Source: a virus
Taxonomy: Duplodnaviria; Heunggongvirae; Uroviricota; Caudoviricetes
IMG/VR virus record: IMGVR_UViG_2534682094_000010
DNA: 4,245 nt
Strand: one strand, 5' to 3'
A program made the position numbers and the translations under genes. Below the pieces are notes generated by a model. It searched no databases. It worked only from the letters and a program-made list of their open reading frames with translations, and was not told the origin of the DNA. How positions within the stretch are numbered: the first letter of the stretch is position 1; every line of letters starts with the position of its first letter. Positions 3,311-3,649 of the stretch are shown here, one piece after another.

Positions 3311-3649
3311 ATGAACAAAACGATTTTATTCTGCACGATTATTGCCTTAACAGGATGTAAATCTTTGGATTACGTAAAATCCGGAAAACCTGTAATGGAA
3401 GGTAATTCATTAAAAAATATTGATGAATTGTCAGGCTGCATATCCAGACAATGGGCTGGTAATGGAACACCTATAACATCCCTTCCTATTGAGAATGGGG
3501 TAAGCCTTTTAGTTCCACAGGCTATGGGGGGATATGATGTTGTGCTTGATATCAAAAAAGCAGGAAATGGCAGTAGTTTTACTCTTTATGAACGTGTACC
3601 AGCATTAACGCCAAAAATTTTTGCTGATAGTGTTAATGCATGTAAATAA
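3311..3649 (+). CDS. Small predicted lipoprotein (112 aa precursor) of unknown function; moron gene between I and J
   Basis: ATG at 3311; the ORF track starts at an upstream TTG at 3299. N-terminus MNKTILFCTIIALTG-C has a basic residue, a hydrophobic core and a lipobox L-T-G-C with Cys16, typical of a signal peptidase II substrate. The +2 residue is Lys, not Asp, so outer-membrane sorting would be expected in enterobacteria. Codon usage is strongly A/T-biased (by eye roughly one-third G+C versus well over 50% in flanking genes). Stop TAA at 3647-3649. No homologue recognised from memory. Confidence 0.7.
   Translation: MNKTILFCTIIALTGCKSLDYVKSGKPVMEGNSLKNIDELSGCISRQWAGNGTPITSLPIENGVSLLVPQAMGGYDVVLDIKKAGNGSSFTLYERVPALTPKIFADSVNACK

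Follow-up and report, generated by a model that had tools for sequence, protein, structure and literature searches.

A predicted outer-membrane lipoprotein of the PHROG 914 family is optional cargo in the tail operon of lambdoid prophages

The DNA analyzed here (the window) is a 4,245-base stretch of the caudoviricete virus record IMGVR_UViG_2534682094_000010 from IMG/VR. It corresponds to the distal part of a lambda-type tail operon, with all genes on the plus strand. The subject of this analysis is a small gene on the same strand (positions 3311–3649), located between the tail genes I and J, which encodes a 112-residue predicted lipoprotein of the PHROG 914/phiKO2 gp19 family; its RefSeq entry, WP_001332187.1, is named 'hypothetical protein'. 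The window begins with the C-terminal end of the tape-measure gene (Tape_meas_lam_C), followed by M (Phage_min_tail), L, K (Prok-JAB), I, a stretch of low guanine-plus-cytosine (GC) content, and the start of J. The left flank of the lipoprotein gene is the gene for tail assembly protein I (2596–3237; Pfam Lambda_tail_I, E = 4e-24; 'tail assembly protein' in the UTI89 RefSeq annotation), and the right flank is the 5′ part of the tail tip/central fiber gene J (3716–4245; Pfam FNIII-A_GpJ, E = 8e-26; gpJ in UTI89). Alignment to an empty I–J site from E. coli M8 showed that the gene is carried by an insert of ∼425 bp (3238–3662), a clean indel placed directly after the stop codon of I and before a hairpin that precedes J. 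The insert is composed of an AT-rich leader of 73 nt (3238–3310), with a candidate promoter region and a weak ribosome-binding site, and the lipoprotein gene. The GC content of the gene is 36%, compared with 57–58% in the flanks (0.33–0.39 versus 0.55–0.60 in the scans). Among ∼4,356 complete E. coli genomes with a similar I–J region, 334 carry the insert. The segment 3238–3716 is 100% identical to the UTI89 prophage that adjoins the trp operon, and it is also present in many B2/extraintestinal pathogenic E. coli (ExPEC) strains, including S88, APEC O1, IHE3034 and NU14. The lipoprotein gene is an optional, compositionally foreign cargo of the lambdoid tail operon: as for morons in the sense of Juhala and Hendrix, it is present or absent at a gene boundary, and its composition is unlike that of the flanks.

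The open reading frame (ORF) as listed starts at an upstream TTG (3299–3649). Since every homologue begins at an MNK/MKK methionine, the ATG at 3311 was assigned as the start; the stop codon is at 3647–3649. A first-pass annotation of this DNA had described the ORF at 3311–3649 as a lipoprotein with Lys at position +2 and a mature domain of ∼97 residues with two further cysteines, and both descriptions held, the former in agreement with the sequence, the match to phrog_914 and the invariant lipid-bearing cysteine. The type II signal peptide (residues 1–15, MNKTILFCTIIALTG; 3311–3358 when the lipidated cysteine is included) comprises a positively charged N-terminal region and a hydrophobic region, and it leads into a lipobox, L-T-G-C (residues 13–16), which conforms to the pattern [LVI][ASTVI][GAS]C. 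The codon of Cys16 is located at 3356–3358, and the signal peptide itself contains one more cysteine, Cys8. The mature chain, of 97 residues, contains two other cysteines, Cys43 (codon 3437–3439) and Cys111 (codon 3641–3643), both in invariant alignment columns. In the AlphaFold secondary structure they are located in helix 37–49 and in the C-terminal helix 103–111, respectively, and they probably form a disulfide in the mature domain. The sequence signals predict lipidation and an outer-membrane location of the protein: residue +2 is Lys17 and not Asp, from which the Lol avoidance rule of E. coli predicts outer-membrane sorting. Across 149 family members this position is occupied by S, A, M, K, T, V, G or E, and in none of them (0/149) by Asp.

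The protein matches phrog_914, a family of unknown function, over its full length (E = 7.3e-33; residues 1–112 against profile positions 1–118 of 118), and a set of 5.8 billion proteins contained 80–110 homologous clusters. The gene adds an E. coli member to this catalogued family, and its product has the architecture seen in the alignments, i.e. ∼110 residues, a lipobox, two conserved cysteines, K35, W48 and G63. The lipid-bearing cysteine and both other cysteines are invariant in the family alignments, with exactly three cysteines in the mature part of 147 of the 149 family proteins. The ratio of non-synonymous to synonymous substitution rates (dN/dS) against diverged homologues was 0.05–0.3 wherever dS was not saturated. 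Among the near-identical IMG/VR copies, 56 of 59 were intact, and a few copies were frameshifted or truncated. The gene is real, conserved and under purifying selection. Two subfamilies can be distinguished, as the window type (KSLD...PQAMGGYDVVLD) is only ∼25–30% identical to the type found in the phages Fraca and phiKO2. Within each of them a central hairpin of the protein is nearly invariant across genera (TSLP..G.S..VPQ.MGGYDVVLD in one and SIPTE.GYKI.ASDDIFGAL in the other), which fits a conserved binding partner.

The AlphaFold2 model, obtained with a 57-sequence alignment as input, has a mean predicted local distance difference test score of 88.5 and the order β-α-β4-α. This confident model suggests that the fold class is α + β, similar to that of Flpp3 from Francisella (DUF3568). 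The two proteins are only 6–12% identical, and their likeness is limited to the level of this common fold; the DUF3568 (PF12092) hidden Markov model (HMM) matched none of the 57 members. A weak DUF3568 match (E = 0.003) belongs to a separate signal-less ORF upstream of the gene in locus L076 and is unrelated to the lipoprotein according to hhalign. In the BFVD structure search the sole good match was the homologue from Pseudomonas phage phiAH14a. Neither Pfam (cut-off E ≤ 1 for the window protein) nor NCBIfam contained a family matching the window protein or the 57 homologues, the anti-phage defense models of PADLOC-DB 2.0 gave zero matches for the window protein or the Fraca protein, and a profile search of the PDB sequences retrieved nothing but a PqiC signal peptide (E = 0.2). 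Matches to VirB7 (E = 0.08) and LPAM_1 in the family libraries were rejected as lipobox-level noise. An exhaustive search of representative sequences returned many short matches of residues 14–58 to giant proteins (1,000–3,700 residues), which were attributed to a motif coincidence with cadherin-like 'DGLG.ISYQW..NG..I' repeats. The 'YceK' label that JGI attaches to a few distant members was disregarded, as those members have no Pfam domain on record.

The closest described relatives are phiKO2 gp19 and its counterparts in Fraca (VUF53278.1), LMessi and Serratia phage OS31 (p54), which share full-length homology, size, the lipobox and the two cysteines with the window protein. The phiKO2 gene also resides in a lambda-type tail module and is followed by a terminator, but the phiKO2/Fraca type belongs to the other subfamily and lies between K and I, not between I and J as in the window. 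GenBank describes gp19 as a 'putative moron gene product; similar to Xanthomonas gene XCC2962' and annotates the terminator after the gene. For OS31 p54, Bujak et al. (2020; PMC7556043) noted the lipobox and wrote that the protein 'might be an analog of Cor proteins'; a Cor-like role, which the first-pass annotation had put forward, is therefore already in print for a homologue. A literature search found no experimental work on the family, and no full text mentioning WP_001332187 or phrog_914.

Profile, HMM, fold and hhalign comparisons agreed with the earlier observation that the protein has no similarity to Cor, Llp, Bor or Lom. Cor of phi80, N15, HK022 and T1 (phrog_1119) is, similarly to the window protein, a small outer-membrane lipoprotein encoded in a siphophage tail region. 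However, it has only ∼77 residues, its gene is located downstream of J beside the receptor-binding genes, and it co-occurs with the window family in the same phages. The window protein matched only phrog_914 and not the Cor profile phrog_1119, and the hhalign alignment with Fraca Cor covered 30 columns, comprising the signal peptide and ∼15 tether residues, with the mature domain unaligned. The first ∼15 mature residues of the window family (3356–3400), of Cor (L002, 11579–11812) and of phiAH14a gp83 (L177, 16239–16661) have in common the loose motif C-x(2-4)-[LV]-x(4)-P-[VI]-x-x-G, although no alignment extends over the remainder of these proteins; the motif could be a common tether feature or just a signal-peptide bias. 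Cor and Llp of T5 are both small outer-membrane lipoproteins that are encoded in structural gene clusters and exclude phages (PMC11990801). Llp, a disulfide-containing envelope modifier, resembles the window protein as a phage-encoded outer-membrane lipoprotein, and neither its sequence nor its fold was found in the window protein. Lpp021 and Lpp010 of mEpimmI are lipoproteins from the structural cluster of temperate coliphages for which phage exclusion was demonstrated experimentally, and the lipoprotein type corresponds to the receptor used, OmpA or LamB (PMC11893012). They differ from the window protein in their length of 72 residues and in the location of their genes, downstream of J on the opposite strand. 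Homology to Lpp021 was rejected, as hhalign aligned only 17 signal-peptide columns with a probability of 22%.

Bor/Iss proteins are also outer-membrane lipoproteins of lambdoid prophages with ∼100 residues and two further cysteines, and they occur in ExPEC strains. Their genes, however, are located in the lysis region and not in the tail module, and no Lambda_Bor match was obtained for the window protein or the 57 homologues. The eight-stranded β-barrel of Lom/Ail proteins is likewise not seen in the window protein, for which the Ail_Lom HMM and the rest of Pfam gave no match and the model is α + β. In the UTI89 prophage, a gene for a Lom/Ail-family outer-membrane protein directly follows J (L001, 24026–24625), so that the tail region of this prophage contains at least two envelope-protein cargo genes. 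The HK97 moron product gp15, on which Cumby et al. worked in 2012, is reported to mediate superinfection exclusion as an inner-membrane protein that acts with the tape-measure protein and PtsG. Its gene is similar to the lipoprotein gene in being optional tail-operon cargo, and its position between the chaperone gene T and the tape-measure protein gene (the T–TMP slot) is the one in which Enterobacter HK97-like prophages carry the lipoprotein, but its inner-membrane location contrasts with the predicted outer-membrane location of the window protein.

To analyze the genomic context of the family, reference tail proteins were mapped onto 150 IMG/VR loci, 148 of which yielded the lipoprotein gene. 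In all 148 it lies within a lambda-type tail module and in the same orientation as the tail genes. It occupies the K–I slot in 83 loci, the I–J slot in 58 (all near-identical E. coli copies) and the T–TMP slot in six, and in one locus extra cargo lies between K and the lipoprotein gene. The genomes of Klebsiella, Kluyvera and Enterobacter gave the same picture of the slots. A scan of genome contigs yielded only two loci, and the plasmid collection a single match. A homologue from a Pseudomonas prophage with only 23% identity is again located in the K–I slot, which indicates that residence beside gene I is ancient. Homologues are encoded by the cultured phages phiKO2 of Klebsiella (gp19), Fraca and LMessi of Escherichia, OS31 of Serratia and phiAH14a of Pseudomonas, and all cultured carriers that were checked (Fraca, phiKO2, OS31 and phiAH14a) are temperate. 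Taken together with the 148 tail-module loci, this points to phage-linked biology and not to host-specific virulence.

Lipoprotein genes of at least four further, unrelated kinds (phrog_2320, 3152, 16082 and 2315) are also found in the K–I slot. Such a stacking of lipoprotein genes suggests selection for envelope-modifying cargo at this position. Unrelated lipoprotein genes adjoin the PHROG 914 gene at K–I in L014 (9647–9994), L078 (9562–9999), L153 (10406–10855), L174 (7708–8004) and L177 (16239–16661; phiAH14a gp83). In some phages the slot additionally accommodates a 3–6 kb immI-like cassette inside the tail operon (L153, 6311–9898; L076, 4524–6766; L078, 8495–9529), with an Arc-like repressor, a Bro-N/P22_AR_C antirepressor, a KilA-N protein and a helix-turn-helix regulator. 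In Fraca, the GenBank start of the 'hypothetical protein' VUF53266.1 (L002, 5725–5994) seems too late; a longer reading, as in related loci, starts with MRKFLSILACSLIIVGC and gives a 115-residue lipoprotein. A conserved two-gene cassette formed by the PHROG 914 gene and its upstream neighbor was considered and rejected, because two of the neighbors are tandem lipoprotein paralogues and the others are unrelated.

A different arrangement is found in phiAH14a (L176, 8960–9945; record positions ∼13998–15000), in which a full-length family copy, split in GenBank into gp34 and gp33, is followed by a terminator and a second I gene, all downstream of a CI-like repressor and on the repressor's strand. 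This second I gene and the I gene of the tail module share 79% identity and have the same C-terminal residues, and the true K–I slot of this phage holds a different lipoprotein of 140 residues. Cargo expressed in lysogens is usually located downstream of the repressor on the same strand. Distant homologues (24–38% identity) are also found outside prophages, i.e. in Shimwellia blattae between a yidB-like gene and ecotin, in Dyella between ppnN and gspH/uvrB, on a Pseudomonas chromosome as a tandem paralogue pair beside a BamE-like gene (L168, 7415–7783 and 8001–8330), and as another tandem pair on a small Rep3/ParA plasmid contig (L172, 904–1272 and 1393–1740).

The position of the gene had led the first-pass annotation to propose that the lipoprotein, encoded beside the receptor-binding fiber gene, could mask or modify the receptor used by J or another surface structure. 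The gene does adjoin J, but it adjoins the 5′ (structural) end, ∼3.4 kb away from the receptor-binding 3′ end. For a lipoprotein that masks the receptor of its own J, one would expect the sequence to vary in step with the receptor-binding C-terminus of J, and this was not seen. Among the E. coli I–J copies, an identical mature lipoprotein is encoded beside at least four types of J C-terminus with 0–70% mutual identity over the last 200 residues of J, including one C-terminus with no detectable similarity. In 99 loci with a complete J, there were 351 pairs with a lipoprotein identity of at least 90% and a J C-terminus identity below 40%, and some pairs of loci combine the same J end with different lipoprotein subfamilies. 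More than 3,300 genomes contain the J C-terminus of the UTI89 prophage, ten times as many as contain the lipoprotein. Cor is also encoded downstream of J in phage Fraca and in at least 14 loci that carry the lipoprotein gene. Finally, the distribution over three slots (T–TMP, K–I and I–J) shows that adjacency to J is not a trait of the family, and homologues exist outside phages. The masking of the neighboring J receptor, as argued from position, is therefore not borne out. The J-end data argue against a matched pair of the Cor or Llp style, although exclusion at another step is possible.

The distance between the lipoprotein gene and J contains a GC-rich hairpin followed by a T-run that resembles an intrinsic terminator (3673–3703). 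The hairpin has a 9-bp stem with six GC pairs, a fold energy of −21.5 kcal/mol and a z-score of −2.6. Since a similar hairpin is also found at empty I–J sites (in the comparison with E. coli M8), it is not specific to the cassette; its presence with or without the insert places a terminator-like element inside the late operon, just before J. The stem sequences of the I–J element differ between sites with and without the insert, being GAGCCGCC...GGCGGCTT and AAACCGCC...GGCGGTTT (window, ∼3664–3703; L008, ∼940–998). A hairpin and a T-run also follow every inspected family copy in the K–I and T–TMP slots. A plus-strand scan for the σ70 consensus (at least 9 of 12 positions) found no promoter upstream of the lipoprotein gene in the window or in two other slots (L003 and L009), and the best candidates that were identified by hand in the leader (TTTACT-17-AATATT and TTTAAT-16-GATAAT) match only 8 of 12 positions. 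Autonomous expression of the gene in the lysogen is therefore putative. In the T–TMP slot of L009 (∼5965–5995), the Shine–Dalgarno sequence GGAGG immediately before the lipoprotein start can pair with CCTCC ∼10 nt upstream, which would create a possible translational control hairpin.

Two further features of the window concern the genes upstream of I. Between 1253 and 2454, comparison with the UTI89 prophage shows 37 deletions of one base each and a single insertion. These changes are concentrated in the 3′ end of M, the whole of L and much the greater part of K, where substitutions are few. As a result, the genes are shattered into short ORFs, and M runs on to 1486. This cluster looks more like low-quality sequence or an assembly error than natural decay. 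Inside K (2416–2467) there is a dense patch of ∼20 substitutions relative to UTI89, which is probably a short mosaic patch that arose by recombination.

Based on these data, we tentatively favor, at less than even confidence, a role in which the periplasm-facing outer-membrane lipoprotein protects the lysogen or the infected cell from phage at a step that is not tied to the receptor of J. According to sequence rules, the precursor would be exported by Sec and processed at Cys16 by Lgt, LspA and Lnt, and the Lol pathway would transfer the lipoprotein to the inner leaflet of the outer membrane, so that a 96-residue α + β domain would hang into the periplasm. Binding of an envelope component by this domain may then block phage infection or re-adsorption and would protect the lysogen, or the cell late in lytic growth. 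Broadly speaking, the protein would thus serve in exclusion or lytic conversion as do Cor, Llp and the Lpp proteins of mEpimmI, with a target that is not set by the receptor-binding end of the neighboring J; one example would be a conserved step that lambda-type tail tips use in the outer membrane or the periplasm. A protective role is favored by the strict and ancient residence in the tail module, the position of the phiAH14a copy close to the repressor, the precedent set by Cor, Llp and mEpimmI Lpp, the gathering of at least four other unrelated lipoprotein genes in the K–I slot, and the near-invariance of the central protein hairpin within each subfamily across genera. The idea of exclusion is neither new nor specifically supported by the position of the gene, and the present evidence shows no unusual mechanism.

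The alternative that holds up best, though we regard it as rather unlikely, is a host-fitness or virulence factor similar to Bor/Iss that would contribute to serum resistance, adhesion or immune recognition and have no role in phage exclusion. The confinement of the window-type allele to the prophage of B2/ExPEC strains (UTI89, S88, APEC O1, IHE3034 and NU14), the Bor-like architecture with a lipobox and two cysteines, and the description of Flpp3, the best structural analogue, as a Francisella virulence determinant by its depositors would all fit such a factor. However, there is no match to Lambda_Bor or any other Pfam family, and the same tail-module slot is kept across environmental phages of Pseudomonas, Serratia, Kluyvera and Klebsiella, which points to a phage-centered role and not one in a host niche.

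A more specific form of the favored protective role, which we consider unlikely, is that PHROG 914 lipoproteins exert receptor-independent exclusion against the conserved tail-tip machinery of lambda-type phages. A candidate target would be the step at which the periplasm is crossed once J is bound, a step that involves the tape-measure, I or L proteins. Such exclusion would account for the long-standing association with I and the conserved tip genes, for the lack of dependence on the J end, for the coexistence with Cor and for the stacking of lipoproteins at K–I. Linkage to I also forms the basis of a lytic-cycle role connected with I and the tail tip, in which the gene would be expressed from the late transcript only and would, for instance, keep progeny off debris and vesicles or aid their release. 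The constant orientation with the late tail operon, the lack of a convincing promoter of its own, the location almost always directly beside I, and the joint duplication of the lipoprotein gene, the terminator and the second I gene in phiAH14a are in line with this role. On the other hand, the T–TMP slot breaks the linkage to I, which can also be plain hitch-hiking, and a terminator directly after the gene makes little sense if expression is purely late and Q-antiterminated. Tail assembly does not need the gene, as most close phage relatives lack it. We regard a purely lytic role as distinctly unlikely.

Two readings appear improbable to a similar degree. The first is that the lipoprotein masks or inactivates the outer-membrane receptor of the adjacent J for self-exclusion, as in the Cor–FhuA and Llp–FhuA pairs. 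It draws on the presence of an outer-membrane lipoprotein gene in the tail-tip region adjoining J and on the pairing of Cor, Llp and mEpimmI Lpp types with receptor type (PMC11893012; PMC11990801), but it is countered by the unlinked and commoner J ends, by the frequent co-carriage of Cor, and by family members in the K–I and T–TMP slots, far from the 3′ end of J. The second is a periplasmic inhibitor or immunity protein spread by mobile elements and directed against envelope-targeting enzymes or toxins, such as type VI secretion system effectors, bacteriocins or lysozyme-like hydrolases. It is consistent with the occurrence of homologues on chromosomes, a small plasmid and phages, with the plasmid-borne and Pseudomonas tandem paralogue pairs, as immunity genes are often arranged in this way, and with the position of the Shimwellia gene beside that of the periplasmic protease inhibitor ecotin. 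The few frameshifted or truncated copies might point to selfish or neutral passenger DNA that now lacks a function, but this reading is very improbable given the dN/dS values, the 56 of 59 intact copies, the invariance of the lipobox and both cysteines over very deep divergence, and the confident fold prediction.

The family is widespread and occurs in clinically relevant hosts, and its E. coli gene has been labeled 'hypothetical' for twenty years. If the lipoprotein is a host-fitness factor, it would represent a prophage-borne surface or envelope protein specific to the B2/ExPEC lineage. If protection from phage by exclusion is its function, Cor, Llp and the Lpp proteins of mEpimmI would be joined by a fourth, widespread family of outer-membrane lipoproteins that phages encode for exclusion, with a different fold and, unusually, not matched to the receptor-binding domain of the carrier phage. 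This would bear on the prediction of phage host range and on phage therapy against ExPEC, Klebsiella and Enterobacter, in which such prophages are common.

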